A stretch of DNA of 61,828 nucleotides from Polaromonas sp. (lineage in GTDB: Bacteria; Pseudomonadota; Gammaproteobacteria; Burkholderiales; Burkholderiaceae_C). The stretch covers positions 1 through 61,828 of the forward strand of contig JANMTB010000106.1 in the NCBI GenBank assembly GCA_031390045.1, written 5' to 3'. The notes under the pieces were generated by a model. It was not told where the DNA came from. It saw only the letters and a program-made list of their open reading frames with translations, and did no database searches. The position numbers and the translations under genes were made by a program. This document shows positions 3,478-51,912 of this stretch, piece after piece. Within the stretch, counting starts at the first letter, position 1. Each line of letters opens with the position of its first letter.

Positions 3478-4404
3478 ATGATGTGGTTTAAGAGTTTATT
3501 GTACTTTATAGGTAAAATTCGCCTGAAGCCGGCGTATTTGTTGCCTCTAATGCTATTATTTTCGCAGCAAAATGCATATGCGGACGTGTGGGGCTACGTC
3601 GATGCCAAAGGCGTTGCTCACTTCGCCGCAGAGCGCGTGGATGACCGTTACGAGTTGTTTTTCAAAGGCGGCGAAAGTTTTGACACTGAGAACGGCGTAT
3701 CGGCCAAACGCAGCGGTGAATCTGCGGCGGGATCGCCCACAGTGGCTACCAAATCTCCAGCCAATGCCAAAATCCTTGCTTATTTTGACGTGTCCACCAA
3801 CTACAAAGCTGTTCGCCACCATATGCGCGAAGCGGCTAAAACTTACAACGTTGATTTTGAGTTGTTGCAGGCCATCATCGTAGCCGAATCAGGTTTTGAC
3901 CACCTTGCTGTGTCACCCAAAGGCGCGATAGGTTTGATGCAGCTGATGCCAGATACCGCCAAGCGCTTTGGCGTGAAGGCTGACAAAAACAAAAGCGTCG
4001 AAGACAAACTACGCGATCCGAAAACCAATATCAATGCTGGTGCTAAGTATTTGCGTGCGTTGATCAATATGTTTCCCGGTAAATTGGAGCTGGCCATAGC
4101 TTCCTACAACGCTGGCGAAGGCGCTGTGCAAAAGTACGGCAACACGATTCCGCCTTACAAAGAAACGCAAAATTACGTCAAAACCGTGGTTCAAACCTTT
4201 TTGGCTATCAAGCCGCCTGTCACGCTGCTACAAGCTAAAGCAGCAGAAAAGTCATTAGCCGCAAGCTCTGCTACTACCGCAAGCAGTGCGCCAAATCGTG
4301 TTCGTATGACGATGGGCGGTGCTGTGGTTGGCGGCGCCGTTGGTCGGGGCAATATGATCGCACCACTGGCAAAAGCTGATTCGGCGACCGTACTAAATCA
4401 ATAA
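3478..4404 (+). CDS. lytic transglycosylase (SLT domain) with signal peptide
   Basis: SLT motifs ESGFD, GLMQLMP and [10 protein letters not shown]-terminal signal ends ...[10 protein letters not shown]. Confidence 0.85.
3526..3573 (+). repeat. copy B of the dispersed repeat, inside the SLT gene (encodes the signal-peptide core)
   Basis: GAAGCCGGCGTATTTGTTGCCTCTAATGCTAT-N7-GCAGCAAAAT, translated in frame as [15 protein letters not shown]. Confidence 0.6.
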
Positions 4405-4445
4405 AAATCAATAAAATTAAAAATACATTTCAGTTTTCAATTTTC

Positions 4446-7165: not shown

Positions 7166-7190
7166 AGAACTAAAAATACTTAAAATATCG

Positions 7191-7244
7191 TTATAGACAC
7201 CGTGTTTATTGCCTAAGCAGCTATTAAAATGATAGTAAATATTT
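7191..7244 (+). repeat. copy C of the dispersed repeat
   Basis: TTATAGACACCGTGTTTATTGCCTAAGCAGCTAT-TAAAATG-ATAGTAAATATTT. It ends 15 nt before the GNAT start. Confidence 0.8.
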
Positions 7245-7259: not shown

Positions 7260-7715
7260 GTGATCATCAAAATAGACGACCTGCTAGGCTCCGAAATCGC
7301 CAAACTACTGCAAGAGCATTTGGACCATATGTATTCCGTATCCCCAGCCGCCAGCGTGCATGCTTTGGATATTGAAGCCCTGCGCCATCCAGATATTACC
7401 TTTTGGAGCGCCTGGGAAGATAATCATCTATGCGGCTGCGGCGCGATTAAAAAGATTAATAGTGAGTATGCAGAACTTAAATCAATGCGAACTGCAAACG
7501 AGTATCAACGGCAAGGTGTGGCGCTCAACATACTCAATACTGTGATTATTGAAGCTAAAAACCGAGGTTATCAAAAACTATACCTGGAAACCGGCTCACA
7601 ACCGGCTTTCTTTCCAGCCCGCACCCTGTATCTAAACCGTGGCTTTAAACTCTGCGAGCCCTTTGAAGGCTATATTCATGACGAGAACAGCGTTTTTATG
7701 AGTTTTGACTTGTAA
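7260..7715 (+). CDS. GNAT family N-acetyltransferase
   Basis: 151 aa with an acetyl-CoA binding motif (QRQGVALNIL..AKNRGY). GTG start. Confidence 0.8.
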   Translation: MIIKIDDLLGSEIAKLLQEHLDHMYSVSPAASVHALDIEALRHPDITFWSAWEDNHLCGCGAIKKINSEYAELKSMRTANEYQRQGVALNILNTVIIEAKNRGYQKLYLETGSQPAFFPARTLYLNRGFKLCEPFEGYIHDENSVFMSFDL

Positions 7716-7740
7716 ATGCACCAAAATAGAAGATAAATTG

Positions 7741-7794
7741 CCTATAGCCGTTGTATTTATTGGCTTAATAGCATTAATATTTATAGCAAATATT
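7741..7794 (+). repeat. copy D of the dispersed repeat
   Basis: CCTATAGCCGTTGTATTTATTGGCTTAATAGCATT-AATATTT-ATAGCAAATATT. Confidence 0.8.
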
Positions 7795-7800: not shown

Positions 7801-8988
7801 TTAAATTACTTCCATCGTTCTCAAGGCTGCAATTTCTTCCGGTTTGTATCCCAATTCCTCAAGTATCTCGTCGGTATGTTCGCCTAACAAGGGTGCGCGT
7901 TGCAAGGGGATTTTTTCGGTTTCGGACAGGGTAAATGCACCGCGCGTGATGGGGGCGGTGTGCGGCATGCCGGGGAAGGCTAGGGGGTTGAGCAGTTGGG
8001 ACGCTGCAATTTGCGGATGTTTTAGCGCTTGCTGTGGCGAAAGCACCGGGCCGCAGGGGATTTTGGCATCGCCTAGCTGCTGGAAGGCTTGGTCTAAACT
8101 GCGTTCTGCGCACCACTGGGCGACGCGGGCGCTGATCAGCTCGCCGTGTTGGCCTCGCAGCTCATCGTCGGCAAAGCGTGGGTCAGATAGCCAATCGGGT
8201 TCGCCAATGAGTTTGGCGATGCGGTCAAACAGAGGTTTGCCGACGACTTGTACCAAAATCCAGCCATCTTGGGTTCGGTATATGTCTACGGGTGCCGCCG
8301 TTTGGCCGCGGTTGCCAGTGGGGACGCGGTTCGGCGCGGCGACGGCTTGCTCAATCAGCGCGCCATTGTTGAAGCTAACGGCGGTGGCTAGCAATGAGCC
8401 TGTGACCACTTGACCCTGCCCAGTCTGCCCACGCGCCATCAAAGCCGCCATCGCACCCAAAGCGCAGTGCAGGGCGGTGCCAAAATCGACCCAGTTGACG
8501 GCGGCGCGGTAGGGCTCGTCGGGCTGACCCGTCATGTACACCACGCCCGACATGGCTTGCGCTACACCGTCAAACCCCACGTTTTTTGCCAACGGGCCGC
8601 TAGATCCAAATGCTGAGCTGGTGACCAAAATTATGTCGGGTTTGATGGCTTTGAGCGTCTCATAGTCCAGCCCCATTTGCTTCAAAGCGGGTTCGGGTAG
8701 GTTGGCGACCACAATATCTGCGCTGAGTACGAGTTTGGCGACCACGTCTCTGCCTTTGGGCGTTAGAGGGTCTAGCGTCAACGAGCGTTTGTTGCGATTG
8801 ATCTGCATGAACATGCCGCCTTCGCCAGAGGCGGCGATGGGTGCGATGTAGCGGTCTTCACCACCGGTGCGTTTTTCAATCCGAATCACATCTGCACCAT
8901 ATTCCCCCAGCAGCGTGGCGCAATAGGGGCCTGCAATGTAGCGGCCAAAATCGAGCACCCGAATACCGGAAAGTAAGTGTTTTGTCAT
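7801..8988 (-). CDS. family III CoA-transferase (CaiB/BaiF type)
   Basis: 395 aa with a typical N-terminus (LSGIRVLDFGRYIAGPYCATLLGEYGADVIRIE). Confidence 0.85.
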   Translation of the reverse strand: MTKHLLSGIRVLDFGRYIAGPYCATLLGEYGADVIRIEKRTGGEDRYIAPIAASGEGGMFMQINRNKRSLTLDPLTPKGRDVVAKLVLSADIVVANLPEPALKQMGLDYETLKAIKPDIILVTSSAFGSSGPLAKNVGFDGVAQAMSGVVYMTGQPDEPYRAAVNWVDFGTALHCALGAMAALMARGQTGQGQVVTGSLLATAVSFNNGALIEQAVAAPNRVPTGNRGQTAAPVDIYRTQDGWILVQVVGKPLFDRIAKLIGEPDWLSDPRFADDELRGQHGELISARVAQWCAERSLDQAFQQLGDAKIPCGPVLSPQQALKHPQIAASQLLNPLAFPGMPHTAPITRGAFTLSETEKIPLQRAPLLGEHTDEILEELGYKPEEIAALRTMEVI

Positions 8989-10686: not shown

Positions 10687-11403
10687 ATGAACGACATCAG
10701 CTCATCTTTTTCAACCGCATTCGCACTCGTCACATCGCTAGACGGCAAGCTGTGGGAGATTGTCGCTCGCTCGCTGTGGGTGAGTGGGGTGGCAACATTG
10801 TTGGCAAGCGGTATCGGGGTTTTGTTAGGTGCCTGGCTGGCGGTGGCGCGATTTTCAGGGCGCGGGGTGGTTTTGGCGCTGCTGAACACGATGCTGGCTA
10901 TTCCGTCTGTCGTCGTCGGTTTGCTGGTCTATTTGATGCTGTCGCGCTCTGGGCCGTTGGGGAGCTTGGGTTGGTTGTTCAGTGTCAAGGCGATGGTTGT
11001 GGCGCAGACGCTGTTGATTTTGCCAATAGTTGTGGCATTGACTCGGCAGTTGATCGAGGATGCAGATGTGCTGCATGGTGAGCAATTGCAGTCGCTCGGA
11101 GCGGGCAGTTTCATGCGGGCCGTGCTGCATGTCTGGGATGAGCGTTTTGCTGTGCTGATGGTGCTTTTGGCAGCGTTTGGCCGGGCGATTGCCGAAGTGG
11201 GCGCTGTGATGGTGGTGGGAGGCAATATCGAGGGATTCACGCGGGTGATGACAACGGCTATTGCACTGGAAACGAGCAAGGGCGACTTGCCACTGGCGCT
11301 GGGGTTGGGTTTGGTGCTCCTAGCGGTGGTGCTGCTCATCAATGCTGTAGTGGCACTGGTGCGACGTGGCGTTACGCTGAATAGCCAAGGAGCCCGCGCA
11401 TGA
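10687..11403 (+). CDS. ABC transporter permease, TupB-like (tungstate/anion family)
   Basis: C-terminal pattern VGGNIEGFTRVMTTAIALETSKGDL resembles TupB permeases. ATG at 10687 preferred over the TTG at 10678. Substrate not established. Confidence 0.7.
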   Translation: MNDISSSFSTAFALVTSLDGKLWEIVARSLWVSGVATLLASGIGVLLGAWLAVARFSGRGVVLALLNTMLAIPSVVVGLLVYLMLSRSGPLGSLGWLFSVKAMVVAQTLLILPIVVALTRQLIEDADVLHGEQLQSLGAGSFMRAVLHVWDERFAVLMVLLAAFGRAIAEVGAVMVVGGNIEGFTRVMTTAIALETSKGDLPLALGLGLVLLAVVLLINAVVALVRRGVTLNSQGARA

Positions 11404-20409: not shown

Positions 20410-22476
20410 TTAAAAGCGCTGTTTGCCTTGCCACCAGTTCAATACGGCTTTGACCGATTCTTCAATCGATAAATCTGAGTTGTCCAAAAGCTTAGCATCT
20501 TGCGCTGGCTTCAAAGGAGCAACGCTGCGGGAAGAGTCCCGTTCGTCACGCGCTTCAAGGTCTGCACTAAGAACGTCGAGTATAGCTGAAATTCCCTTTG
20601 AAATCAACTGGTTATGGCGCCGTAAAGCACGTTTTTCAGCGCTAGCAGTCAAAAATACCTTCAAAGCGGCGTTAGGGAAGATCACCGTACCCATATCGCG
20701 TCCGTCCGCCACCAAACCGGGCAGGGTGCGAAAGCTGTGCTGCAGCTTCACCAAAGCCTGCCGAACCATAGGCAAAACCGACACTTGCGAGGCGTGCATG
20801 CCGCCCGCTTCAGAGCGGATGTCATGGCTAACATCGTCGCCATTCAGCAAAATGCTGTCACCCTCAAACCTCAAATGAAGTTTTTCAACCAAACTTGTTG
20901 CCAACACAGCGATGGCGATTTCGTCCTTAGGCTCCAAGCTTAAACCCTGCTGCAGCGCCGCAAAAGCAGTCACACGGTATAAAGCTCCCGAATCTAGGTA
21001 GTGGTAGCCCAGTTTTTGAGCTAATTGCGATGCCAAACTGCCTTTGCCAGAGGCGCTGGGGCCATCCACGGTGATGACGGGAATATTCTTTAAGTCAGTT
21101 TCAGCCACCGAAAACAGCGCTTCGAAGTAATCGGGAAAGGTTTTTGCGACGCATTTGGGGTCCAAAATGCGAACTGGTAAACCGGCCGGGTTGAACGCTG
21201 CGATTGAGAAGCACATGGCGACACGGTGGTCGTCATAGGTGTGAATCGGTGCGGTTTTCCAGTCTGCAGCGGTTTTTGGCGGCGTGATACTGATAAAGTC
21301 TACGCCTTCGATGACGGTTGCGCCCAATTTGCGCAATTCTGCAGCCATAGCGGCGATACGATCAGTTTCTTTGACGCGCCAGCTGGCGATGTTGCGCAGC
21401 GTTGTCGTGCCGTCTGCGTAAAGTGCCATCACAGCCAAAGTCATTGCTGCGTCGGGGATATGGTTGCAGTCTAAATCAACCGCTTTTAAGGGCCAAGAGC
21501 CGCGTGAAATTTCAAGGTGATTTGGGCCGCTGTTGACAACCGCACCCATGGCTTGTGCAGCTTCTATGAATCGAATATCGCCCTGAATTGAATCGGCGCC
21601 TACGCCTTCGACGCGAATAGCGTAATTTGTACTATAAACATCATTATTAATGTCATTTTTTGTTATAGCCGTCGTATTTATTGATCCTAATGCTATAAAA
21701 TAGCTAGCAGATGAAGCATCGGCTTCGACGTGAATGCTGCCCGGTGAAACGTACCGGCACCCTTGGGGTATCGTGAACTTTTGCCATCCATCGCGTTGTA
21801 CCTTGATGCCAAAACGCGCTAGTAAATTCAGCGTGATGTCGATGTACGGTTTTGAGATCAGCTCACCTTGCACTTCAAGCACGATATCTTGCGTCGCCAC
21901 CAGAGGCAGCGCAAGGAGTAGAGCAGTCAAAAACTGGCTAGAAACATCGCCACGGACTTTGATCGGCTCATTTAAATGGAAGGATTTTGCAGCCCTAATA
22001 CGTAGCGGCGGGTAGCCATCTTGTCCCAAATAGTCAATCTGACATCCCAATTGGCGCAGTCCATCGACCAAATCACCAATCGGCCGCTCATGCATGCGTG
22101 GCACGCCGCTGAGTTCGAACTCCGTGCTTCCCTTCGCTAACAGCGCTAAAGCAGCCGTTAACGGACGCATTGCCGTGCCAGCGTTGCCCATGTATAGCTT
22201 GGCCGATTGCAAAACCGAATGAATGCCTAAGCCATTGATTTCAATTGAATTTTTGACTAATCCATTGGGTTTTTGGATCGTGCAGCCAAGTTGCGACAGG
22301 GCGGTCAGCATCACCTGCGTGTCGTCTGAATCCAGTAAATCATGCACCGTTGTGGTGCCTTGGCTCAGGGCTGAGAGTAGTAAAACGCGATTAGAAATAC
22401 TTTTCGAACCTGGTAAAACGACTGTGCCGTGAGCGTGACTGAGCGCGGGAATGTCTAAAAAATCGGTATTGAACAT
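20410..22476 (-). CDS. aroA: fused 3-phosphoshikimate 1-carboxyvinyltransferase / cytidylate kinase
   Basis: Residues 1 to about 455 are EPSP synthase ([35 protein letters not shown]). Residues about 460-688 are Cmk ([13 protein letters not shown]). One continuous ORF. Confidence 0.9.
21620..21710 (+). repeat. copy E of the dispersed repeat plus AT-rich flank, embedded in frame in aroA
   Basis: TATAGCCGTCGTATTTATTGATCCTAATGCTAT-AAAATAG-CTAGC on the plus strand. This region encodes an extra stretch of about 16 aa ([20 protein letters not shown]) after the [14 protein letters not shown] motif. Confidence 0.6.
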
Positions 22477-24551: not shown

Positions 24552-24587
24552 TGAATTAGTATGTATTGATTTTTTAGTGTTAAATAT

Positions 24588-24640
24588 GGCTATAGCCGGC
24601 GTATTTATTGCCTAGAGTGCTATTAAATATATAGTAAATT
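24588..24640 (+). repeat. copy F of the dispersed repeat (pheA-gyrA intergenic)
   Basis: GGCTATAGCCGGCGTATTTATTGCCTAGAGTGCTAT-TAAATAT-ATAGTAAAT. Confidence 0.85.
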
Positions 24641-24662
24641 GAAATATTTTTTTTCGTGTTAT

Positions 24663-30442: not shown

Positions 30443-32171
30443 AAACCTGTTTGGTATAATATTTATAGCATTACAGGCATATATAACGCCGGCTACAGCC
30501 TGTTTTGATGATATTTTTTTAGGTAAATCACTGCAATCACTTCAAAGCAGCTTGCTATATGTTTGGTCACCACGTATGGTGCTGTCTGCCACGCAGGCAC
30601 GACTAGCGGCAGAATCTGCCAAAGCTTTAAATGTGCAGTTTGTCCCTTTGGTCGATGGGCGTATTGCAGCCTCTGAATGGCAATCAGCGCTGCGAACTTT
30701 AGCAACGACGCAGCCGATGGATGCCGAAGTTTTGGCAGCAACCCAAGTGCTTTGTTCCGAAAAATTGATCGAAAAAGATGCTTACACCCACTTTCCGACC
30801 GCTTTTGTCGTGAAAAGTGGGGAAATTCACCCTAATCGACTGATTGGTGCAATGCCAGCTAATTTTTGGCAGCAAGGCATCAACGAGCGTTTGCAAGCTC
30901 GAAAAGATGCCAAAACAGCTGATGTAACTGAAATAGCAGTATCGAATTTGAATCCACAGCAATGCATTCCACAAAATCAATTTATTGCGCTGGATCCGCA
31001 ATTGGCGGGCTTGGACGATGACAATCAAGTGGCATTAGGCGCTTACGAGCGTATCAGCCCTGATGGACGGTATGTGCTGCGCTCTTATTCAGGTAAAAAA
31101 CTGTCAGCGGTGAGCTTGGTGGAGTTGCCTGGGCCTGCGGGATTGACGGCAATCAAGGGCCAAATCAGCCGTCAAAAAATCACTTCAACACCGTTTTCTA
31201 ACGAAGCTTTTCCCGTGCAAGGCAGCTGGCGGTATCTGGTTGATACGAATGGTGATCACTATACTTTTAATAGCATACTAGGCAATAAATACGTCGGTAA
31301 AAACACAATTAAACCACTTTTTTCAGGTGGCATGGATGGCTTTTATGCGGCTGCGGCTGAAGTGGTTGGCGCGTACCCATTGCGGGATAGTAAACCGGTA
31401 CAGATACGCTCACTCAGCTGGCCCAATGCGAATGGCGGTAGTTCAAATACATCAGACCAGCAAGGCATGGGCATGCTGACATCGCGCACACTCTCAGTGA
31501 ATGGCACAGCGAATCAAATCAGCTCTGACACAGGACGTATCAATCACTGCATGGATCGTTTGTCGCAAGATGGTTCTATGTATGCGCTACCGATGATTTC
31601 GGTAGATGGCCAAGAATTTGCCGCCTTGCCGCAAAACCCTATCTCCGGCGTGCCCACCATGCGCATTTTCCGTTTCGGTGCTGATGGCAAGCGGTGCGAG
31701 CCGGTTGGGCAGTTCACTTTGCAGTCTGGCAAGGTGATTTTTGGCTTCTCATCTGCAGCAAAAAAGCATGCTGATGTGGCTTATGAGTACCGTGGGCAGG
31801 TTTGGTGGGTGCAGCGCAATAACAGCGGGAAACCGCAGTTGCCTCTCAATTTAGCACCTTGGGAAGATCCAGCTGTCGCCGGTAATAAAGCCAATCCGGC
31901 TTACAAAGACGTCACTGCCAACGCCTTTCCGGGCTTTACTCGCGATGGCCGCGTCATTTACGCAGCCAATTGGAAGCGTTGTGTGGGCGCAAACATGGGC
32001 AAAGACTGCACACAAGAGGGCGGTTATGTCGTCTCCGACCCTTATCAAAGCAATGCCTACCGTGCTGAGTTGATAAAAAACAGTTCAAAAGCGCCCAAAA
32101 GCTGCATCACAGTACAAGAAGTTGCCAATGAACGGACCGCTTTTGCCGCGTTTCACAGCATTTTGGACTGA
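30429..32171 (+). CDS. hypothetical secreted protein: degenerate thioredoxin-like N-domain plus TolB/PD40-like beta-propeller-like region
   Basis: 580 aa. Signal- or lipoprotein-like N-terminus (..ITPATAC). Trx-fold-like segment without CxxC (LYVWSPRMVLS ... FPTAFVVKSGEI). Repeated xxDGxxx motifs (SPDGRYVL, SQDGSMYAL, FTRDGRVIY). Confidence 0.55.
   Translation: MAIYKNLFGIIFIALQAYITPATACFDDIFLGKSLQSLQSSLLYVWSPRMVLSATQARLAAESAKALNVQFVPLVDGRIAASEWQSALRTLATTQPMDAEVLAATQVLCSEKLIEKDAYTHFPTAFVVKSGEIHPNRLIGAMPANFWQQGINERLQARKDAKTADVTEIAVSNLNPQQCIPQNQFIALDPQLAGLDDDNQVALGAYERISPDGRYVLRSYSGKKLSAVSLVELPGPAGLTAIKGQISRQKITSTPFSNEAFPVQGSWRYLVDTNGDHYTFNSILGNKYVGKNTIKPLFSGGMDGFYAAAAEVVGAYPLRDSKPVQIRSLSWPNANGGSSNTSDQQGMGMLTSRTLSVNGTANQISSDTGRINHCMDRLSQDGSMYALPMISVDGQEFAALPQNPISGVPTMRIFRFGADGKRCEPVGQFTLQSGKVIFGFSSAAKKHADVAYEYRGQVWWVQRNNSGKPQLPLNLAPWEDPAVAGNKANPAYKDVTANAFPGFTRDGRVIYAANWKRCVGANMGKDCTQEGGYVVSDPYQSNAYRAELIKNSSKAPKSCITVQEVANERTAFAAFHSILD
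30451..30500 (-). repeat. copy G of the dispersed repeat (reverse), forming the 5' end of the 30429 ORF
   Basis: TTGGTATAATATTTATAGCATTACAGGCATATATAACGCCGGCTACAGCC is the reverse complement of the family consensus. It translates as FGIIFIALQAYITPATA. Confidence 0.7.
31258..31304 (-). repeat. copy N of the dispersed repeat (reverse), in frame in the middle of the 30429 ORF
   Basis: ACTATACTTTTAATAGCATACTAGGCAATAAATACGTCGGTAAAAAC, translated as FNSILGNKYVGKN. Confidence 0.55.
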
Positions 32172-32618: not shown

Positions 32619-32636
32619 TTTATATGGTAAATATCG

Positions 32637-32687
32637 CTCTAACCGGCATATTTATTGCCTATATAGCTATAAAAAATATAGCATATT
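32637..32687 (+). repeat. copy H of the dispersed repeat, 19 nt after the tmRNA 3' end
   Basis: CTCTAACCGGCATATTTATTGCCTATATAGCTAT-AAAAAAT-ATAGCATATT. Confidence 0.75.
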
Positions 32688-32705
32688 ATCACTATATTTT
32701 TTATC

Positions 32706-33371
32706 ATGACACAAACCCTTTCCATCGTGATGCTAGGGGCCAGCGGTGCAGTAGGCGGCGTTGCTGCACTAGCGCTCAGCCAATTGCCCGAAATCAAACA
32801 GCTAACGTTGCTCAATCGAAAAGAACTTCCAGCACTTTTATTACCGAAGGTGATACAACTCATCCGTGATGTCACTGACCCTAAAGATTATTCGCAGTTT
32901 CTAAGCGGTCACCAAGTGGCCATATGTTGCCTAGGCGTGGGGCAACCTTCTAAAGTTAGCAAAGTAGAGTTTGTCAAAATTGACAAAACAGCTGCACTCG
33001 CTTTTGCAACTGCCTGCAAGCAAGCGGGTGTGCGGCATTTTCAGCTGCTTAGCGCTGTGGGCGCCGATGCAAAATCGAACAGCCATTACCTGCAAACCAA
33101 AGGCGAGCTGCAAGATGCCATCATTGCCTTGGGTTTTGAGCGGACGAGCTTCTTTCAGCCTTCCATGATTTTGACGCCGACCAACCGCTATGGTTTCTCT
33201 CAAGGCGTCATGCTAGCGGTGTGGCCATCGCTGTCGGCGGTATTGCAAGGTGGTTTGCGTAAATACCGTGGCATCAATGTCGCGACACTTGGTTGCGCTA
33301 TCGCTAAAAACGTTATCACAGCCGGACAAGGTCTAGAAATCTTGCGTTGGGATCAAATAAACAGCCTATAG
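32706..33371 (+). CDS. NAD(P)H-binding Rossmann-fold protein (atypical SDR / HTATIP2-like)
   Basis: 221 aa. N-terminal VMLGASGAVGG dinucleotide-binding motif. The last codons and the stop lie in repeat copy I. Confidence 0.7.
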   Translation: MTQTLSIVMLGASGAVGGVAALALSQLPEIKQLTLLNRKELPALLLPKVIQLIRDVTDPKDYSQFLSGHQVAICCLGVGQPSKVSKVEFVKIDKTAALAFATACKQAGVRHFQLLSAVGADAKSNSHYLQTKGELQDAIIALGFERTSFFQPSMILTPTNRYGFSQGVMLAVWPSLSAVLQGGLRKYRGINVATLGCAIAKNVITAGQGLEILRWDQINSL

Positions 33372-33416
33372 CCGGCGTATTTATTGCCTAAGCAGCTATT
33401 ATAAATATAGCTATTT
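33365..33416 (+). repeat. copy I of the dispersed repeat (near-consensus)
   Basis: CCTATAGCCGGCGTATTTATTGCCTAAGCAGCTAT-TATAAAT-ATAGCTATTT. Confidence 0.9.
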
Positions 33417-33460
33417 AGGCGTTTAAAACACTGAATTACAACGCTGCATTAATACCTACA

Positions 33461-42208: not shown

Positions 42209-43804
42209 ATGCGTTTTAGCGTCGTTTGGTTCAAGCGTGATTTGCGCGTTGCAGACCATGCAGCTTTACAAGCAGCCGCCCAACGCGGCCCCGTTTTATG
42301 CCTATACGTGATCGAGCCCAGTGTTTGGGTGCAGTCTGATGCGGCTCACCAGCACTACTTATTTTTGCTTGAAAGCTTACGCGATTTAGACGCTGATTTA
42401 CGCCGTTTAGGTGGGAAATTGCATGTTTTATCCGGCGAATTTGTTGATGTTTTAGCTAGATTATTTATAGCAAATTCTTTTGTAGCAGTTTACGCGCACG
42501 AAGAAACGGGCAACGGCATCACTTATAAGCGCGACTTAGCTGTGGGGCAATGGTGCAATTCGCACAATGTTGAATTTTTTGAATTCAGACAATTTGGCGT
42601 GGTGCGCAAACTCAAAAATCGCAGCGATTGGAAAAGCCATTGGGACAAGCATGTTCGCTCGCTCATTTTGCCAGTGCCAGATGCGGTGCAACTGCAATTC
42701 GTGCCGCTACCTTGGCATGCAGCTTTGCTTCCAAGTCCTGTAAAGCTAGGTCTAATTACTGATGTGAAGTTACCAACGCCGAAGCAACGCCAACTGGGTG
42801 GTCGTCGTTTGGGTCTAGAGGTTTTGCAAGATTTTTTGAACGACAGAAGCGCGCAATATCGCGGCGGTATTTCGTCGCCATTGTCCGCCCCAACCGCGTG
42901 TTCTCGGCTCTCGCCATATTTAGCTTTTGGCTGTGTTAGCTTACGCGAAGTGGTGCAATCCACTTACCATGCCATTGCAGAGTTACCAGCAGGAAATTGG
43001 CAAAAAAAGGGTTTGGTTGCCTTTGTCAGCCGTTTGTACTGGCATTGCCATTTCATTCAAAAGTTAGAGTCAGAGCCGACGCTTGAATACCAAAACGTGC
43101 ACCGAGGCTACGACGGCTTACGTGAAAACGATTGGAACCCAGCTCATTTTGAGGCTTTGACCACCGCTCGCACTGGCTGGCCGCTGGTCGATGCCTGCGT
43201 GGTGATGCTCCGCGAGACGGGCTGGCTCAACTTTCGTATGCGCGCCATGTTGGTATCTGTTGCCGCTTACCCGCTGTGGCTGCACTGGCAGCTTGTGGGG
43301 CAATGGCTGGCGCGGCAGTTTTTGGACTACGAGCCGGGCATCCACTGGAGCCAGATGCAAATGCAATCTGGCACGACGGGTATCAACACCACGCGGGTTT
43401 ACAACCCCATCAAACAAGCGCAAGACCACGACCCGTACGGTTATTTCGTGCGCCGCTGGTTGCCTTATATGCGACGCGTGCCAGATGCTTGGCTGTTCGA
43501 GCCGTGGCGCATGCCGCAAGTGATGCAAGAGCATTTGAAATTGACCATTGGCATAGGCGGAGAATTTGACATCCCAGAGCCGGTAGTCGACCTGCAAACC
43601 GCCACCCGAGAAGCCAAAGCCAAGCTTCATGGACGACGCGCACAGCCCGAAGTGAAAGCAGGCAAAGCCTCGATTGTTGAAAAGCATGCTTCAAGATCGA
43701 CGACGAGGACTAAAAAACCAACATCGACAAAAACGGCTACGACAATGACGCGCAGAGAAGCAACGATTAAAACCGAAAACCAACAAATTGCCTTGGATTT
43801 CTAG
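42209..43804 (+). CDS. cryptochrome/photolyase family protein (class unresolved) with a Lys/Thr-rich C-terminal extension
   Basis: 531 aa. Photolyase N-terminus ([16 protein letters not shown]) and FAD-binding domain ([36 protein letters not shown]). Confidence 0.85.
42431..42476 (+). repeat. possible copy Q of the dispersed repeat inside the photolyase-family gene
   Basis: TCCGGCGAATTTGTTGATGTTTTAGCTAG-ATTATTT-ATAGCAAATT. Hand alignment gives about 30 of 41 matches to copy M. No obvious length insertion in the protein. Confidence 0.45.
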
Positions 43805-43818
43805 ATTCCCCTGTTTTT

Positions 43819-43983
43819 ATGAAAATGATCAAAAAAGCCAACTTACCCAGCAAAGTCTGTATCCACTGCCAGCGCCCATTCACATGGCGTAAAAAGTGGG
43901 AAAAGGTATGGGACGATGTGAAATACTGCTCTGATCGCTGCCGGATGAGCTATTCCGGAAGTAAGGGCGACAAGAAAGTATGA
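43819..43983 (+). CDS. DUF2256 small zinc-ribbon protein (54 aa, absent from the ORF track)
   Basis: [54 protein letters not shown] has the CxxC..WRKKW..YCSxRC pattern. Its stop overlaps the ATG of the next gene (ATGA). Confidence 0.7.
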
Positions 43984-45191
43984 CTGCTGGCATCTCCATC
44001 TATTGGTTTCGTAATGACCTGCGTATTATCGACAACCCTGCATTTGATAGCGCCTATCGAACAGCTACAAAACTGCATGCGGTTTACATTCACGACTCGA
44101 AACACAGCGTTGAAACGCATTGGGGATTTGAGTGCATGGCTGAGAATCGCAAGACATTTTTGGCAGCGAGGTTGCAGGATTTAGCATTGCAATTGCAAGC
44201 TTTTGGTATTGAGTTGATTGATTTACGCGGTACACCAAAAGACGCATTGACGGATTTTGCCAAGTCCTACGATACTTGCCAGATTTATTGCGAAGATATC
44301 GCCGCACCCGAAGAACAGGCTGACATTGCTAGCTTAAAAGCTGTTGGCTTTGAAGTCGATGTGCTTTGGCAATCCAGTTTGCTTGAGCCAGCAGATTTGC
44401 CATTCGAAGTTGAAGCGTTACCAGCCGTCTTCACTGCTTTTAGAAACAAAGTCGAAAAGCATGCCGTAAAACCGCGTTTACCACTGCAAACTGAATCTGG
44501 CTCTAAGGCGACAATTCCTGAATCTGCAGTCGAAAAGCATCTAAAACACTATTTCTCAAGCGATTTTGCGTTGACGTACAAGGCGACGCGCAATCAGCCG
44601 ATGAACTTTGCGCCCGATCAGTACTTCTCAACAAAATTCTCCCCATGGTTGGCCTGTGGCGCTTTGTCTGCGCCCATGATTTATGAGAAATTGAAGCAAT
44701 TTGAATCCGAACGGGGTGCGAACGACAGCACCTATTGGATTTGGTTTGAGCTTCTTTGGCGCGATTATTTCAGGTTTTTACATTTACAGAATGGCAAAAA
44801 ACTTTATAGAAAACAAGGGCTTGGCAGCTTTGAGCTTGCACTAGTGCCGCATAACAAGCAAGGGTTTAAGCGTTGGTGCGAAGGGCAAACGGGCGAGCCG
44901 TTGGTCGACGCGGGCATGCGCGAGTTGGCTGCGACCGGATGGCTGTCCAACCGCATGCGCCAAGTCGTCGCTAGTTATTTGATTTATGACTTAGGTGGTG
45001 ACTGGCGAGCGGGTGCTGCGTGGTTTGAAGCGCAGCTGATTGACTATGACGTTTACAGCAACCAAGGCAACTGGCTCTACATCGCAGGCCGCGGCACCGA
45101 CCCGCGCGGTGGACGGCGGTTTAACCCGCACATGCAAGCGCAACAGCATGATTCAGAGGGTAAGTATCGACAGTTTTGGCGTGCAAATTGA
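43980..45191 (+). CDS. DASH-family cryptochrome
   Basis: 403 aa. [58 protein letters not shown]. Confidence 0.85.
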
Positions 45192-45204
45192 ATACAAAAG
45201 CGTT

Positions 45205-45257
45205 AAATTATGCTATGATTATTATAGCTGTTTATGAAATAAATACGCCGGCTACAG
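45205..45257 (-). repeat. copy J of the dispersed repeat (reverse)
   Basis: AAATTATGCTATGATTATTATAGCTGTTTATGAAATAAATACGCCGGCTACAG. Confidence 0.8.
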
Positions 45258-45305
45258 TCATAAGTACCTCTAAAAATTAGTCAATATTAACAATTTAAGG
45301 TAAAT

Positions 45306-46898
45306 ATGAAAAAGACGACACTCAGATTGATCTTAGGTGACCAATTGAACCCATTGCACAGCTGGTTTACAGTGGTGGATTGCAGCGTTATTTACGTGCT
45401 GATGGAACTGCGCCAAGAGACAGACTACGTGCTGCACCATGCGCAAAAAATACTGGCTATCTTTGCAGGTATGCGTGATTTTGCGGCGCTGCTTGAAGCG
45501 GCTGGTCACCGCGTGCATTATGTGAAGATTGACGATGCTGCGAATTTGCCGACCATCACAGAGAACCTAAATGCGCTGATCGCCAAGTACCAAGCCATCG
45601 CTTTTGAATACCAAGCGCCCGATGAGTGGCGGCTGGATATGCAAATGGCTGACTACGTAAAATCGCTCACTCAATCACAGTCAATATCAATGCAAATGGT
45701 TGATTCAGAACACTTTTTCACTGCTCGCGACGAGACAGCTTTGCTTTTCGGTGACCGCAAAAAGTGGCTGATGGAGACGTTTTACAGGCAAATGCGCGTA
45801 AAGCACGGCATCTTGATCGAAGACGACAGCAAGCCGCCTAAGCCTGTAGGTGGTCAATGGAATTTTGATGCTGAGAACCGCAAAGCTTGGCCCGGCTTGC
45901 CGCTAGCACCGTCAGACATTCGTGCTGAGCGTAGAAAAACGCACGACCACAGCGCCCTTTGGACAACGATAGTTAAAGCTGGCGTGAAAAGCTTTGGTGA
46001 GCCCCATGCAAGTAAGTTCGGCTGGCCGCTTAATCGGGCTGAGGCATTGGTGCAACTCGATATTTTTGTAGCCCAAGTCCTCCCTAATTTCGGCGATTTT
46101 GAAGATGCGATGAGCAGTAAGGAATGGCGTTTGTTTCACTCGTTGCTATCGTTTTCAATGAACGTGAAAATGCTGAATCCACGTGAAGTGGTGGCTAAAG
46201 CAGAAGCAGCGGGGCGCTCAGGCGCTGCGCCGCTGGCCGCGGTGGAAGGTTTTATTAGGCAAATATTGGGTTGGCGCGAGTTTATGCGCGGGTTTTATTG
46301 GGCAAAGATGCTAGACAGTTTGCCAGCAACGTATGCCGATAACAACTATTTCAACCACCAAATGCCATTGCCAAAGTGGTTTTGGACGGGCAAAACCCAG
46401 ATGCGCTGCATGGCTGCCGCCATCGGACAATCGTTAGAGCAAGCCTACGCCCACCATATTCAACGGCTGATGGTGATTGGTAACTTTGCACTCTTGGCAG
46501 GGGTGAACCCGAAAGAACTTCACCACTGGTATTTGGGTATTTATATCGACGCCTTTGAGTGGGTCGAGCTGCCCAACACCGTGGGCATGAGCCAGTTTGC
46601 TGATGGCGGCTTGTTAGCGACCAAGCCTTACGTCAGCAGCGCCGCCTATATTGACCGCATGAGCGACTACTGCAAAGGCTGCCATTACGATAAAAAACTA
46701 AGGGAAGACACGCCCAACAAAAAAGCCTGCCCCTTCAACGCGTTGTATTGGGACTTTCACGTCAAGCATGCTGATAAATTAGCCAACAACCCGCGCATAG
46801 GCATGGTTTACCAGCAATTGAAAAAGATGGATGCTAGCAAAATTGAAGCGTTTCAAGTTCAAGCGGCAAACTTGAAAGGGCGCTTGGATAATCTGTAA
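45306..46898 (+). CDS. FeS-containing bacterial cryptochrome/photolyase (PhrB/CryB-like, probable (6-4) photolyase)
   Basis: 530 aa. N-terminal LRLILGDQL. C-terminal Cys set (RCMAA..., YCKGCHYD, ACPFNALYW) consistent with a 4Fe-4S ligand pattern. Confidence 0.8.
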   Translation: MKKTTLRLILGDQLNPLHSWFTVVDCSVIYVLMELRQETDYVLHHAQKILAIFAGMRDFAALLEAAGHRVHYVKIDDAANLPTITENLNALIAKYQAIAFEYQAPDEWRLDMQMADYVKSLTQSQSISMQMVDSEHFFTARDETALLFGDRKKWLMETFYRQMRVKHGILIEDDSKPPKPVGGQWNFDAENRKAWPGLPLAPSDIRAERRKTHDHSALWTTIVKAGVKSFGEPHASKFGWPLNRAEALVQLDIFVAQVLPNFGDFEDAMSSKEWRLFHSLLSFSMNVKMLNPREVVAKAEAAGRSGAAPLAAVEGFIRQILGWREFMRGFYWAKMLDSLPATYADNNYFNHQMPLPKWFWTGKTQMRCMAAAIGQSLEQAYAHHIQRLMVIGNFALLAGVNPKELHHWYLGIYIDAFEWVELPNTVGMSQFADGGLLATKPYVSSAAYIDRMSDYCKGCHYDKKLREDTPNKKACPFNALYWDFHVKHADKLANNPRIGMVYQQLKKMDASKIEAFQVQAANLKGRLDNL

Positions 46899-48881: not shown

Positions 48882-49688
48882 ATGAGCAAAATGATGCATT
48901 TAGAAGATATTCTGTATACCCAAGGCTTCGGCACGCGCCGTGTGTGCGCGGGTTTGATTGAAAAAGGGTTGGTAGAGGTCTATTTAGAGGATAAATCTTC
49001 ATCAGCCGGCGTATTTGTTGCCAAGATAGCTATGGATAATGTAGCAAATTACGTTACAAAAGGATTCCGCTTTCGGGTGCAAGGCGTTGATTGGGAATAC
49101 CACGAGATGGCTTATGTGCTGTTTAACAAACCTACAGGCAGCGAATGCTCTCAAAAGCCGTCCATGCACCCCAGCATCTACACCTTTTTGCCGTCGCCGT
49201 TGCGTCTACGTCCGCAAAAAAGCGCGATTCAAGGCGTGCAGGCTGTTGGGCGATTGGACCAAGACACCACGGGTATGCTGTTGATGAGTGACGATGGCCA
49301 GTTCATTCACCGCATGAGTTCGCCGAAAAAGCACGTGTCCAAGGTCTATGAAGTGATCACCAAACACCCGTTGGACGACAAACAACTGCAAAAGCTGCTC
49401 GCTGGTGTCGTTTTGGACGATGACCCGAAGCCCGTCAAAGCCGCAGCGGCCGAAATAATCTCTGAGCATCACATTAAACTCACTTTGACAGAGGGCAAAT
49501 ACCACCAAGTCAAGCGGATGCTGGCGGCTGTGAGCAACCGCGTGGAGGGGCTGCACAGATCGCAAATTGGTGGTTTGAAGCTGCCGGACGACCTGTTGCC
49601 AGGTCAATGGCGCTGGCTCAATGAGGCGGATATGGCGTTGATGCTTAGCTCGCCATCTTCACAAATGACTCAAAGTAAGGCTGAATGA
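48882..49688 (+). CDS. RsuA-family rRNA pseudouridine synthase
   Basis: S4-like N-terminus, catalytic GRLDQDTTGMLL, and EGKYHQVKRM. The true start may be the ATG at 48894. Confidence 0.82.
   Translation: MSKMMHLEDILYTQGFGTRRVCAGLIEKGLVEVYLEDKSSSAGVFVAKIAMDNVANYVTKGFRFRVQGVDWEYHEMAYVLFNKPTGSECSQKPSMHPSIYTFLPSPLRLRPQKSAIQGVQAVGRLDQDTTGMLLMSDDGQFIHRMSSPKKHVSKVYEVITKHPLDDKQLQKLLAGVVLDDDPKPVKAAAAEIISEHHIKLTLTEGKYHQVKRMLAAVSNRVEGLHRSQIGGLKLPDDLLPGQWRWLNEADMALMLSSPSSQMTQSKAE
49002..49050 (+). repeat. copy O of the dispersed repeat, in frame in the rsuA-like gene
   Basis: TCAGCCGGCGTATTTGTTGCCAAGATAGCTAT-GGATAAT-GTAGCAAATT, translated as SAGVFVAKIAMDNVANY. Confidence 0.65.
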
Positions 49689-50503
49689 TGCGCTATCCAC
49701 TGAAAACTACGGCTATTTGGCTTGCTTTGTTGTGTTTGCCTTTGTCTGTTTTTTCACAAAAAAGTGTTTATTTAGAAGAGCTTACGACACAAGAGGTCAG
49801 CGCGATGGTGAAAAATTCACCTTCATTGGTCATCATTCCTGTGGGCGGTACCGAGCAAAACGGGCCGCACATGGCGCTTGGTAAGCACAACACCCGCGTC
49901 AAGGTGCTGGTAGGGCGGATTGCTCAGCAATTAGCTGCTCAAAAAATCAACACCATCGTCGCGCCCGTGGTGAGCTATGTACCCGAAGGCAACATCAGCC
50001 CACCGACCGAGCACATGAAGTGGGCAGGCACGATATCGATTTCTGATGACGCCTTCAAAAGCATGCTGCTTTCGGCGGCGCGTAGCTTTCGGCAGCATGG
50101 GTTTACCGATATCGTGATATTGGGTGACAGTGGCAATTACCAGTCCATGCTGGCGCAAGTGGCGGTTACCTTCAACAAAGACAGCAAAAATGCACCTGCA
50201 CGCATGCATTTCATTGGCGATTACTACAAAGCAACGCAAGCCAACTATATCGCCGCTTTACAGGCAAAAGGGCTGAGCGACGCTGAAATCGGCACCCACG
50301 CTGGATCGGCAGACACGTCACTCTTGATGGCGATTGAGCCCATCATGGTGAAACCCGACAAGTTTGCCGAAGCTGCCAAAGAAGGCAGGGCAGGTGGCAC
50401 ACTGGGCGACCCCAGAGCCGCCACCGCAGCATTAGGCCAAATAGCAGCGGACGCTATGGTTAAAATGAGCATCTTAGCAATACAAAAAGCAATTCAGAAA
50501 TGA
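49685..50503 (+). CDS. creatininase-family amidohydrolase with predicted signal peptide
   Basis: 272 aa. IIPVGGTEQNGPHMALGKHN metal-site motif. Hydrophobic N-terminus (AIWLALLCLPLSVFS). ATGA overlap with the rsuA-like stop. Confidence 0.78.
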   Translation: MMRYPLKTTAIWLALLCLPLSVFSQKSVYLEELTTQEVSAMVKNSPSLVIIPVGGTEQNGPHMALGKHNTRVKVLVGRIAQQLAAQKINTIVAPVVSYVPEGNISPPTEHMKWAGTISISDDAFKSMLLSAARSFRQHGFTDIVILGDSGNYQSMLAQVAVTFNKDSKNAPARMHFIGDYYKATQANYIAALQAKGLSDAEIGTHAGSADTSLLMAIEPIMVKPDKFAEAAKEGRAGGTLGDPRAATAALGQIAADAMVKMSILAIQKAIQK

Positions 50504-51912
50504 CGATTGGCATGATTACAAATACGAAGACAAATACGAAAACATTGAAGAAGTTGCTGATTGCCGCTGCCAGTGTGCTAGCGGGTAGTGCGATTGTGGG
50601 TGCTTGGGCTGTGGCTCAAACCACGACTCAGCCGACTGTTCCAGCTAATCAGTCGACGCTTAAAAAAGAATCAAATTTGGCTGCAGCCGGCGCATCTGTT
50701 GCCTCTGGAGCTATTAATACAGTAGCAGGAATGCCTGCTGTGGTTGATCCTAAAAACCTCTACAGCGAGACTGTATCGAGCAAAATGAGCCCCGCTGTTG
50801 AGGGCGCTTTGGAGCGCGTGTATGTACCGAATCGCGGTGAAAACACAGTCTCGGTGATTGACCCGAACACACTAAAAGTTATCGACAAATTCAAAGTCGG
50901 CATCAACCCGCAGCACGTCGTACCGTCGTGGGATTTGGGCACGCTGTGGGTGGCGAACAATGCCGAGGGCCGCACCGACGGTAGCTTGACACCCATCAAC
51001 CCGAAAACGGGAAAATCTGGCAAATCCATCCCTGTAGATGACCCGTACAACCTGTATTGGTCAACAGACGGCAAATTTGCGATCGTGGTGGCAGAGGCCT
51101 ACAAACGCCTTGATTTCCGCGATGCGAAGACCATGGAGATGAAGTTCACGATACCTACGCCTTTGTGCGCTGGCATCAACCATGCAGATTTTTCGATTGA
51201 CGGCAAATTTGCGGTATTCACCTGCGAATTCAACGGCTCCATCACCAAAATCGACTTGGTGAACCGCAAGGTGCTTGCAACAGTCAAACTCAATGCGTAT
51301 TTTGACCGTCCTAACGCCTTGGCGGCCATTGCAAAAGTCAACCCGACTGCAACCAGCGCACTGAGCACAAAAATGCGTTACATTGCAGACCCCGACAGTC
51401 CAGGCTCGCAAATTTGTACCACGCCAGGTATGCCGCAAGATGTGCGGATTTCGCCTGATGGTTCTACTTTTTATATTGCCGATATGATGGTCGACGGTGT
51501 GCATGTGGTGGATGGTGAGTCGTTCAAGCAAACTGGTTTCATTCCTACGGGTAAGGGTGCACACGGCATTTACCCTAGCCGCGATGGCAAAAGTTTTTAT
51601 GTCGCCAACCGTGGCAGTAACAAAATTCGGGGCACACCGAATGGTCCTGGCAGCGTTTCCGTGGTGGATTTTGCAACCAAAAAAGTCACTAAAACGTGGG
51701 CCATTCCTGGCGGTGGCAGCCCTGACATGGGCAACGTCAGCGTAAATGGTAAATACCTATGGCTGGGTGGCCGCTATGACGACACCGTGTACCGTTTTGA
51801 TACCGATACGGGCGCGGTAGACAAAATCAAGGTTGGCCGCGAGCCGCATGGCTTGACGGTTTGGCCACAACCAGGTCGTTACTCATTAGGTCATACCGGT
51901 AATTTGCGCTAA
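50500..51912 (+). CDS. YVTN-type beta-propeller repeat protein, secreted
   Basis: 470 aa. Signal peptide, then repeated YV(A/P)N-like blades (VYVPNRGENTVSVID, LWVANN, FYIADM, FYVANRGSN). Confidence 0.7.
   Translation: MTIGMITNTKTNTKTLKKLLIAAASVLAGSAIVGAWAVAQTTTQPTVPANQSTLKKESNLAAAGASVASGAINTVAGMPAVVDPKNLYSETVSSKMSPAVEGALERVYVPNRGENTVSVIDPNTLKVIDKFKVGINPQHVVPSWDLGTLWVANNAEGRTDGSLTPINPKTGKSGKSIPVDDPYNLYWSTDGKFAIVVAEAYKRLDFRDAKTMEMKFTIPTPLCAGINHADFSIDGKFAVFTCEFNGSITKIDLVNRKVLATVKLNAYFDRPNALAAIAKVNPTATSALSTKMRYIADPDSPGSQICTTPGMPQDVRISPDGSTFYIADMMVDGVHVVDGESFKQTGFIPTGKGAHGIYPSRDGKSFYVANRGSNKIRGTPNGPGSVSVVDFATKKVTKTWAIPGGGSPDMGNVSVNGKYLWLGGRYDDTVYRFDTDTGAVDKIKVGREPHGLTVWPQPGRYSLGHTGNLR
50681..50730 (+). 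repeat. copy P of the dispersed repeat, in frame in the YVTN gene
   Basis: CTGCAGCCGGCGCATCTGTTGCCTCTGGAGCTAT-TAATACA-GTAGCAGGA, translated as AAGASVASGAINTVAG. Same frame as copy O. Confidence 0.6.

Follow-up and report, generated by a model that had tools for sequence, protein, structure and literature searches.

A short REP-like repeat of low-G+C Comamonadaceae, found between genes and, in frame, inside conserved ones

The stretch of DNA considered here, which we call the window, comprises 61,828 nt (50.2% G+C) of contig JANMTB010000106.1 from a Polaromonas sp., and it carries, among other genes, those for an SLT transglycosylase, a fused aroA-cmk, GyrA, tmRNA, three photolyase-family proteins, RsuA and a YVTN/YncE beta-propeller. 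Scattered between these genes, and inside some of them, are copies of a short repeat with a hairpin at one end, and that repeat is the subject of this paper. How does such a sequence come to lie within a gene, in frame and free of stops, without the gene being lost? A preliminary description, made from the sequence of the window alone, proposed that seven copies sit in protein-coding genes and that they behave like the Rickettsia palindromic elements (RPEs), which insert in frame. We have retained most of the first proposal and part of the second.

Read from left to right, a copy consists of an NTAG tag, a 19-nt core (AGCCGGCGTATTTATTGCC), the hexamer TAAGCA and a hairpin, GCTAT-N7-ATAGC; written out with its surroundings, the layout is aaata-N-GCC-yy-TAG-CCGGCGTATTTATTGCC-TAAGCA-GCTAT-N7-ATAGC-aaat. 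The unit measures ~60 nt, or ~80 nt if the AT-rich left arm is included, and the information content of metagenomic copies likewise gives a conserved unit of ~80 nt, from ~32 nt upstream of the core to ~30 nt downstream of it. Most copies have CTAG or ATAG as their tag; GTAG is seen at 45213 and 30476 and in many genic metagenomic copies. As a palindrome the repeat is weak—5 bp on either side of N7, plus a 3-bp GGC/GCC pair—and single-sequence RNA folds of its copies are heterogeneous, with z-scores from -2.6 to +0.1 that reach significance in only some of them. At its AT-rich ends (AAATA ... AAAT) the unit shows no clear terminal inverted repeat. The consensus carries one to three stops per frame, all of them removed in coding copies, and two of its frames read like signal peptides: LAGVFIA, a stop and AAI..IA in one, AIFIIAA, a stop and AINTPAIA in the other. 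No Rfam 15 family overlaps any copy, even at E<=1 (only tmRNA passes its gathering score), a full-text search found no paper containing the core sequence, and the literature on palindromic elements in Polaromonas yielded only a review that cites an unrelated MITE (miniature inverted-repeat transposable element) from strain JS666.

Copies were scored with two nhmmer profiles, one built only from the eight clean intergenic copies of the window (60-65 nt each) and one, independent of it, built from 114 metagenomic copies, none from the window; 100 dinucleotide-shuffled windows (6.18 Mb) served as the control for chance. With the independent profile, six genic copies—one each in the SLT gene, aroA, rsuA and the YVTN gene, and two in the gene for a hypothetical protein that we call hyp580—score 18.7-43.1 bits, against best scores of only 11.3-11.6 bits in the shuffled windows (Table 1). 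The distribution of scores is bimodal, with the strong copies first, then those at 19-43 bits and then noise. Could the genic matches nonetheless be accidents of composition, in which peptides rich in Ala, Ile, Val and Phe, written in this genome's codons, come to resemble an AT-rich repeat? The signal-peptide-like frames of the consensus would lend themselves to such convergence, GCCGGCGT would also be the expected coding of Ala-Gly-Val in GC-rich genomes, and the seventh claimed copy, in the first photolyase-family gene, is indeed at chance level: it is absent with the independent profile, its 9.6 bits with the in-window profile lie within the range of the shuffles, and the gene has no indel there relative to solved photolyases. 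For the other six copies, however, chance is largely refuted, not only by the shuffled scores but also by the zero matches at E<0.01 in 78 loci of other Comamonadaceae (L003-L080, 1.19 Mb) and by the extent of the matches, which span 45-65 nt and include synonymous positions; it stands for the photolyase site only, and as an account of the genic copies in general we find it next to incredible.

Table 1. Repeat copies and other features of the window, with scores from the in-window (IW) and independent (IND) profiles
Feature	Position	Strand	Score	Remarks
SLT transglycosylase gene	3478-4404	+		host gene
Repeat copy in SLT gene	3509..3577	+	43.1 bits, E=4e-12 (IND); E 2e-7 (IW, site 3512)	sense to gene
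Intergenic copy	7179..7243	+	52 bits (IW)	between two co-directional + genes
Intergenic copy	7728..7794	+	48.8 bits (IW)	convergent genes: GNAT 7260-7715 (+) and 7801-8988 (-)
Convergent gene pair	11400-12116 / 12113-13234	+ / -		overlap at 12113-12116
rsmX/isrK Rfam match	13724-13833	-		sub-threshold
Low-complexity coding region	13759-14462	-		Ala/Lys-rich, many short direct repeats
aroA-cmk gene	20410-22476	-		host gene; one 688-aa open reading frame
Repeat copy in aroA-cmk	21650..21714	+	25.1 bits (IW), 18.7 bits (IND); E 7e-7 (IW, site 21662)	antisense to gene
Intergenic copy	24576..24643	+	61.7 bits (IND)	between pheA-like gene (23469-24551, -) and gyrA (24663-27323, -)
Direct repeat	27595-27894 / 28111-28410			300 nt, 80% identical; region 27595-28442
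GCTCCT-type microsatellite	27828-27989
hyp580 gene	30429-32171	+		host gene; 580 aa
hyp580 copy 1	30445..30508	-	24.4 bits (IND); E 3e-5 (IW, site 30508)	antisense to gene
hyp580 copy 2	31250..31297	-	31.1 bits (IND); E 5e-8 (IW, site 31297)	other frame than copy 1
tmRNA gene	32234-32618			Rfam RF00023, 173 bits
Intergenic copy	32624..32689	+		starts 6 nt after tmRNA gene
Intergenic copy	33354..33424	+	59.3 bits (IND)	convergent genes
Cryptochrome/photolyase-like gene	42209-43804	+
Claimed copy in photolyase-family gene	42429..42476	+	9.6 bits, E=0.05 (IW)	not supported
DNA photolyase gene	43980-45191	+		PF00875+PF03441
Intergenic copy	45201..45273	-	40.1 bits (IND)	between two + photolyase-family genes; also in L001
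DPRP photolyase-related protein gene	45306-46898	+		PF04244
rsuA gene	48882-49688	+		host gene
Repeat copy in rsuA	49002..49055	+	34.0 bits (IND); E 3e-6 (IW, site 49004)	sense to gene
YVTN/YncE beta-propeller gene	50500-51912	+		host gene
Repeat copy in YVTN gene	50667..50733	+	28.7 bits (IND); E 1e-7 (IW, site 50667)	sense to gene; also in L001
Intergenic copy	52982..53047	+	48.1 bits (IND)	co-directional + genes
Weak degenerate intergenic copy	53087..53134	+	10.1 bits, E=0.036 (IW)	at shuffle level; TAGCCGGCGTGATTATTC...GCTAT-N7-ATAG
Intergenic copy	59037..59102	+	64.4 bits (IW), 58.3 bits (IND)	convergent genes; also in L001

Between genes, the copies favour gene 3' ends, a placement like that of the repetitive extragenic palindromes (REPs). 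Three of the intergenic copies in the window lie between convergent genes, six between co-directional ones and none between divergent ones, and the wider sample agrees: with metagenomic copies sorted by their flanking open reading frames (ORFs), 24 are convergent, 25 co-directional and 4 divergent, among the matches listed. That sample comes from metagenome contigs scanned for the exact 19-nt core, which gave at least 129 usable copies, and a simple long-ORF rule was used for the census of genic and intergenic positions; by this rule 24 to 31 of 129 copies fall inside long ORFs, and the genic fraction is put at 19-37%, again among the matches listed. At 33369-33371, the TAG of the tag (CTATAGCC) is itself the stop codon of the gene at 32706-33371, and the repeat there overlaps the gene's end. 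A replication-linked strand bias, with 13 copies on the forward strand of the window and 3-4 on the reverse, was considered and dropped: in 6 of 8 metagenomic contigs that hold two copies, the two have opposite orientations.

The hosts of the genic copies are genuine, conserved genes: the aroA-cmk product can be matched along the whole of its length to solved structures of AroA and Cmk, hyp580 has 555 homologues, and RsuA, the YVTN propeller and the SLT protein have hundreds to thousands. (An exact look-up found no record identical to the aroA-cmk protein of the window. The fusion of aroA with cmk is itself common to all of the best 120 homologues, some of which are recorded as bifunctional 3-phosphoshikimate 1-carboxyvinyltransferase/cytidylate kinase.) The preliminary description had allowed that its hosts might be pseudogenes or mis-assemblies; with homologues this plentiful, and with the same copies found again in L001, L081, L082 and L083, which are contigs from related genomes discussed below, neither is the case. 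It was right, too, that the translations run open through stop-free, in-frame copies, that frames are shared between copies (AGVFVA and AGASVA in sense copies, ..FIAL.. in aroA and hyp580 copy 1), and that genic copies escape the stop of the consensus GCC TAA, reading GCC AAG at 49003 and GCC TCT at 50684.

What do these copies contribute to the proteins? They are predicted to be read through as quite ordinary parts: two signal-peptide h-regions, a linker, a loop, a beta-hairpin of an S4 domain and an internal segment. The SLT copy encodes 16 aa in the h-region of a signal peptide; homologues have unrelated signal peptides of equal length before a conserved DVWGY, and one of them, P0363 (76% identical), has a repeat-type peptide too. 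In hyp580, copy 1 encodes FGIIFIALQAYITPATA, again in the signal peptide. The peptide FAIIFIAIQAINTPAxAC is kept in homologues down to ~56% identity, and those at 46-49% have other signal peptides, of equal length, before a conserved Cys. Copy 2 encodes HYTFNSILGNKYVGKN, which overlays HYTFNSILGNKY.G. The aroA copy encodes 19 aa, the rsuA copy encodes SAGVFVAKIAMDNVAN, in the S4-domain beta-hairpin, and the YVTN copy, which follows the signal peptide and precedes the propeller, encodes AAGASVASGAINTVAG. Both signal-peptide copies lie within the first 32 codons, and according to Di Nocera et al. (PMC3733652) many N-terminal 'intragenic' REPs are probably extragenic, so it might be that these two copies are non-coding, the true starts lying downstream and the annotated ORFs merely extending into an upstream intergenic repeat. 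We regard this as very improbable. A start at Met25 in SLT, or at Leu42 or Met50 in hyp580, would remove the only signal-peptide-like segment from two proteins for which export is expected. Dozens of homologues, moreover, conserve the N-terminal peptides at protein level, with the Cys or the DVWGY at a fixed distance.

The copies can be followed into other genomes. The organism is a freshwater betaproteobacterium of the Comamonadaceae, of unusually low G+C, and its closest genome record is L001, a metagenome-assembled genome (MAG) of a Polaromonas sp. (RsuA 97% identical, 50.3% G+C), which again has the copies in rsuA and YVTN. Three further species, represented by contigs fetched via their AroA homologues and syntenic with the window (L081, L082 and L083, with AroA 89, 83 and 77% identical and 48.5-50.3% G+C), share with the window the positions of the aroA copy, hyp580 copy 1 and the intergenic copy between gyrA and pheA; L081 and L082 also have hyp580 copy 2, which L083 lacks. 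Some copies in these three species are closer to the consensus than those of the window, the orthologous aroA copies scoring 46 bits in L081 and 31 bits in L082, and hyp580 copy 1 scoring 43.9 bits in L082 and 30.8 bits in L083. The gyrA/pheA copy, for its part, is better conserved than its flanks. Since the genic copies occupy the same sites in independent assemblies (L001, L081, L082 and L083), they are neither assembly artefacts nor recent insertions; all six in the window are old, and four of them (aroA, hyp580 twice and, at lower similarity, rsuA) are shown to be common to other species. In L002 (79% identical, 55% G+C), there is one copy in 20 kb, and the spacer at the site of the window's copy at 52982 is only 34 nt; in GC-rich relatives, no repeat of the window form was found. 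This form of the element is specific to a Comamonadaceae lineage of ~50% G+C, and GC-richer variants of its layout occur in other Comamonadaceae. One intergenic site has been found both filled and empty: a pair of convergent genes that overlap by their stop codons in the window (Table 1) are separated at the orthologous site by 75-125 nt that include a repeat copy, at 20340-20406 in L081 and 20403-20468 in L082, and the comparison reveals no clean boundaries and no target duplication.

If each genic copy were an insertion, its host should be longer than its relatives by about the length of the element, and the preliminary description had pointed to a comparison with orthologues as the way to find out. 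We measured net length changes against element-free homologues, which are often distant (for metagenomic enzymes, against solved structures), and alignments of loops and linkers are uncertain by a few residues. By this bookkeeping, a clean insertion of the full ~81-nt element is found in the MetH of a relative (+27 aa). Gains elsewhere are smaller: +16 aa in aroA, +8 to +12 aa in MoaC, +4 aa in PepN and +2 to +3 aa in an adenylating enzyme. There is no change at all in TrpF, where a near-consensus copy lies in a helix of the (beta-alpha)8 barrel, in the repeat-like part of rsuA, or in the SLT and hyp580 signal peptides; hyp580 copy 2 changes the length by 0 to +4 aa, and YgfZ is shorter by 4 to 6 aa. 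Among the ten measured cases, then, none has the +19 to +20 aa of a 60-nt unit, and only MetH has the +27 aa of an 80-nt unit. No window gene has a clean insertion of element length, the 16-aa gain of aroA being less than the element's 19-27 aa, and the other five copies (rsuA, both in hyp580, SLT and YVTN) have no matching indel; they encode residues that element-free homologues also have.

These five and aroA deserve a closer look, for in several of them the gene seems to have resembled part of the element before the element was there. The 16 residues of aroA are extra relative to every solved AroA, they fall at the copy (~21631-21678), and the gain begins within the core; the resulting loop is common to the best 120 homologues and varies among them in length and sequence. 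About half of the repeat-like stretch, however, is the universal SSASYF(L/I)A motif, whose SASYF(I/L)A is encoded by GCTAGCTATTTTATAGC, a pre-existing similarity at the hairpin end. (We considered whether the inserted stretch of aroA might be a left arm of the element, or a second, partial copy, and were not convinced, the similarity being AT-richness only.) In the region of hyp580 copy 2, L082, which has the core, and L083, which does not, are equal in length, and homologues without the core still have HYTF.S, once more at the hairpin end. The hairpin half of the YVTN copy encodes A-I/V-N/D-x-V-A/S-G-M-P, which is conserved in homologues that have no repeat-type peptide, and its core half sits in a linker whose length varies among homologues.

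In rsuA the 45 repeat-like nt are canonical S4 residues, SAGVFVAKIAMDNVA in the window against VAGVPCTEPAMDFVA in the Polaromonas type when the DNA is anchored on the hairpin; the copy is orthologous to VAGVPCTEPAMDFVAD in Polaromonas-type rsuA, with no change of length, and Variovorax-type RsuA proteins are as long as that of the window. Identity of these 45 nt to the element is 26-32/45 in the Polaromonas/Rhodoferax/Hylemonella group, and in the Variovorax type it is 11-13/45 in the tabulated register or ~17/45 by hand count in the protein-homologous register. A protein alignment had suggested a variable insert in rsuA, which we rejected; its gaps were misplaced, and the hairpin-anchored DNA gave the correct register. 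Nor do we claim that a further 7 aa to the left of the rsuA copy represent the element's left arm, suggestive as they are by eye, for the nhmmer matches start at profile position 19.

It could still be held that every genic copy is a clean in-frame insertion at a tolerant surface position, as in the RPEs, and that the missing indels are a matter of later trimming or of alignment error. MetH, with its whole element, is just what such a process would leave behind; so are the 16 aa exactly at the aroA copy, the gain in MoaC, and the intergenic site at which L081 and L082 have a copy and the window has none, and the high uniformity of the core (more than 129 exact 19-mers) suggests spread by copy and paste. 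Against these we have to set TrpF, in which a (beta-alpha)8 helix holds a near-consensus copy and the length is unchanged, the canonical S4 residues of an RsuA as long as its Variovorax- and Polaromonas-type counterparts, the equal lengths of hyp580 with and without the core of copy 2, two signal peptides of normal length, and the ten measured cases as a whole. By alignment to solved proteins, TrpF and the adenylating enzyme would carry their copies in core secondary-structure segments. We consider insertion as the sole route unlikely. The in-frame insertion put forward in the preliminary description survives for aroA, as a lineage-specific gain, and for MetH in the relative, and it fails at five of the six real genic copies by the orthologue comparison that the same description proposed. 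True insertion does happen, and taking the place of existing residues is at least as common.

The hairpin has a history of its own. In the GC-rich Comamonadaceae loci, GCTAY-N7-RTAGC occurs at 45 sites in 1.19 Mb, where 5 to 9 would be expected by a rough estimate of chance, and ahead of it there often stand AGCCC..., a small variable hairpin and AAGCA, a GC-rich dialect of the window element's own layout. Within rsuA, the same hairpin, ~130-160 nt into the gene, is kept across several GC-rich genera (among L003-L080). It uses the AT-ending codons GCT, GTA and ATA in genomes of 60-65% G+C, where such codons are expected to be rare, and its fifth pair swaps between T-A and C-G via T.G intermediates. 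This pattern suggests a conserved DNA or mRNA structure. In aroA, four species agree in their codons at 0.83 of positions where the copy lies (codons 251-264) and at 0.53 on average over the gene, and together these comparisons offer a hint that some DNA- or RNA-level constraint may act on genic copies.

Constraint at that level invites a quite different thought, which is that nothing was ever copied and that the repeat is a motif under genome-wide drive or selection—an uptake signal or a chromosome-organiser site—built in place by substitutions wherever a protein can bear them, with dialects particular to each lineage. Coding copies without indels, copies kept at orthologous sites, intergenic copies enriched at convergent gene ends, dialect-like variants in other Comamonadaceae and AT-ending codons retained by the rsuA hairpin in GC-rich genomes are all consistent with it. 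There is even a ComEA-like HHH_3 gene in the window's syntenic region, which lends it weak support, the gene being widespread. The motif, however, is very long, at ~60 bits, whereas the uptake signals of Pasteurellaceae and Neisseriaceae (USS, uptake signal sequences, and DUS, DNA uptake sequences) have cores of 9-12 nt; its scores are bimodal, not the continuum expected of a drive by point mutation; true insertions also occur (aroA, MoaC and MetH); and we know of no uptake specificity in Comamonadaceae. In our judgment, a motif built wholly in place is improbable.

With which known system, then, does the element belong? The RPEs (RPE-1 and related families), reportedly described by Ogata et al. 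in 2000, are 100-150 nt long, and their insertions are said to be clean and to lengthen the host protein by 30-50 aa. The element of the window resembles them in being a dispersed, hairpin-capable repeat that lies between genes and also in frame in unrelated housekeeping genes, where it would be read through as extra or altered peptide, and in having copies at orthologous sites of related species. It differs in its shorter unit (60-80 nt); in that a gain nearing element length is seen only in aroA (one of the six window copies) and MetH, with MoaC smaller, whereas other copies occupy the place of residues present in element-free homologues; and in occurring in another taxon. Intragenic palindromic repeats are known as RPEs in Rickettsia (PMC10969869), and the preliminary description, while it recognised that pattern, was unaware of an equivalent in Burkholderiales; for bacteria other than Rickettsia, however, intragenic REPs were on record before this. 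Di Nocera et al. (2013, PMC3733652) found proteins 'decorated' by GTAG/CGTC REPs in a wide range of bacteria, among them a betaproteobacterium, Thauera; a minority of REPs lie inside ORFs, many of these at N-termini, and most lie between convergent or unidirectional ORFs, at gene 3' ends (PMC3733652). The element here is likewise a short tagged palindromic repeat, with the same convergent and co-directional placement, divergent positions being rare, and with a minority of copies inside ORFs. Its tag, however, is NTAG, with GTAG in a minority; its palindrome is weak and accompanied by a long, non-palindromic conserved core; its genic fraction is unusually high (the 19-37% given above, among the matches listed); and no REP-associated tyrosine transposase (RAYT) was linked to it, either among 10 adjacent ORFs or by a RAYT probe on the loci.

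Like the uptake signals, the element has coding copies without a change of protein length, preferred frames, orthologous conservation, enrichment at convergent ends and dialects, and it differs from them in being a motif of ~60 nt with a hairpin and in also making true insertions; we know of no competence bias for it. Bacterial MITEs (ERIC, Nezha and others) can create in-frame fusions (review PMC10969869), and like them it is a small, non-autonomous repeat able to join an ORF, although it is much shorter than most of them and no terminal inverted repeats, target-site duplication or parent insertion sequence were found for it. In sum, the element works like the RPEs and the REPs, and we file it as a member of neither, because the GTAG tag and the palindrome are present only in part and clean insertion is not seen at most sites. 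What is unusual about it is the combination of a high genic fraction, use as signal peptides, long conservation at orthologous sites and replacement without change of length.

The account to which we incline, with confidence that only just outweighs our doubt, is that this is an old REP-like element, with a tag, a hairpin, a high copy number and a place at gene 3' ends, copies of whose sequence have entered coding DNA and have displaced residues there more often than they have added any, and that these copies have been selected to be stop-free and are now held in place by the proteins. The route would be as follows. Element sequence is copied into a gene, sometimes as a true insertion and more often as a patch, which is anchored by a likeness that the gene already bore to part of the element and replaces a stretch about as long as itself; insertion followed by compensating loss would be an alternative to the patch. 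Selection would then keep only outcomes that are in frame, free of stops and tolerated by the protein fold, and afterwards the copies would be held by selection at the level of the protein and possibly also by constraint on the hairpin itself.

Several things weigh against this account, and they should be stated together. No event has been caught in the act, and because every genic copy in the window is old, the route in is inferred from length bookkeeping against homologues that are often distant. The loop and linker alignments of YVTN, aroA and PepN are ambiguous by a few residues. Windows at the 3' end of aroA score as high in codon identity as the copy does, and the homology of the GC-rich dialects rests on a shared layout and on the 26-32/45 nt of identity. 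Overwriting of 45-50 nt in the absence of flanking homology has no established mechanism that we know of, and neither a Pfam search of the 10 copy-adjacent ORFs nor the RAYT probe on the loci linked a transposase or RAYT to the element: the adjacent ORFs have ordinary domains (GNAT, NAD-binding, creatininase, MoCF, photolyases, CysZ) or none, and the probe, an approximate query, matched only L040, a Limnohabitans MAG, at a place flanked by a different REP. There (676-1186 / 1501-1525), a truncated RAYT-like ORF, 887-1144 (HLHWLMQ ... YIVANPVRAGLV), adjoins rsuA; we considered this remnant as a partner of the element and set it aside, for the flanking classical GTAG REPs (GTAGGAGCGGTCTCCGACCGCGAT) are an unrelated family.

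A bolder version of the replacement account is that the element is family-wide and dialect-forming in Comamonadaceae, that it is actively written over coding DNA, with 45-50 nt replaced in place, at unchanged length, in conserved enzymes such as TrpF, RsuA and AroA, and that its hairpin is kept inside genes by a function in DNA or RNA. We regard this as possible and, on present evidence, rather doubtful. Candidate mechanisms would be a conversion process specific to the element, such as strand exchange of the HUH/RAYT type at pseudo-sites or microhomology-anchored templated repair, or a drive like that of uptake signals. Were such overwriting real, proteins would have a route other than insertion by which peptides derived from a repeat can reshape them and new signal peptides can be recruited.

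Why should this matter? When a short dispersed repeat turns up within a gene, the usual interpretation, as for RPEs and intragenic REPs, is an insertion and an added peptide; here such repeats lie in essential enzymes and signal peptides, mostly without the expected gain of length, at the same sites across species. If replacement is the true explanation, then there would exist an undescribed process that copies a repeat over coding DNA and, in doing so, supplies proteins with ready-made hydrophobic segments, and the many species, sites and filled or unfilled states of this element would make it a tractable system for asking whether a hairpin can be selected for its own function inside genes. 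There would be a practical side as well, in that during annotation a genic copy can pass for an intergenic repeat, a wrong start codon or an assembly error.

Some other features of the window may be recorded here (Table 1). The 3' ends of tmRNA genes, such as the one that precedes an intergenic copy, are common integration sites. The three photolyase-family genes, which stand in a row at 42209-46898, form a cluster that is also present in L001 and is not in L002. The 300-nt direct repeat, with its microsatellite, adjoins a gene of the OmpA family and may have arisen when part of an Ala/Pro-rich linker was duplicated. In L081 and L082, the orthologue of the low-complexity Ala/Lys-rich region is an HHH_3 (ComEA-like, DNA-binding) gene, and the sub-threshold rsmX/isrK match is probably just a terminator hairpin.

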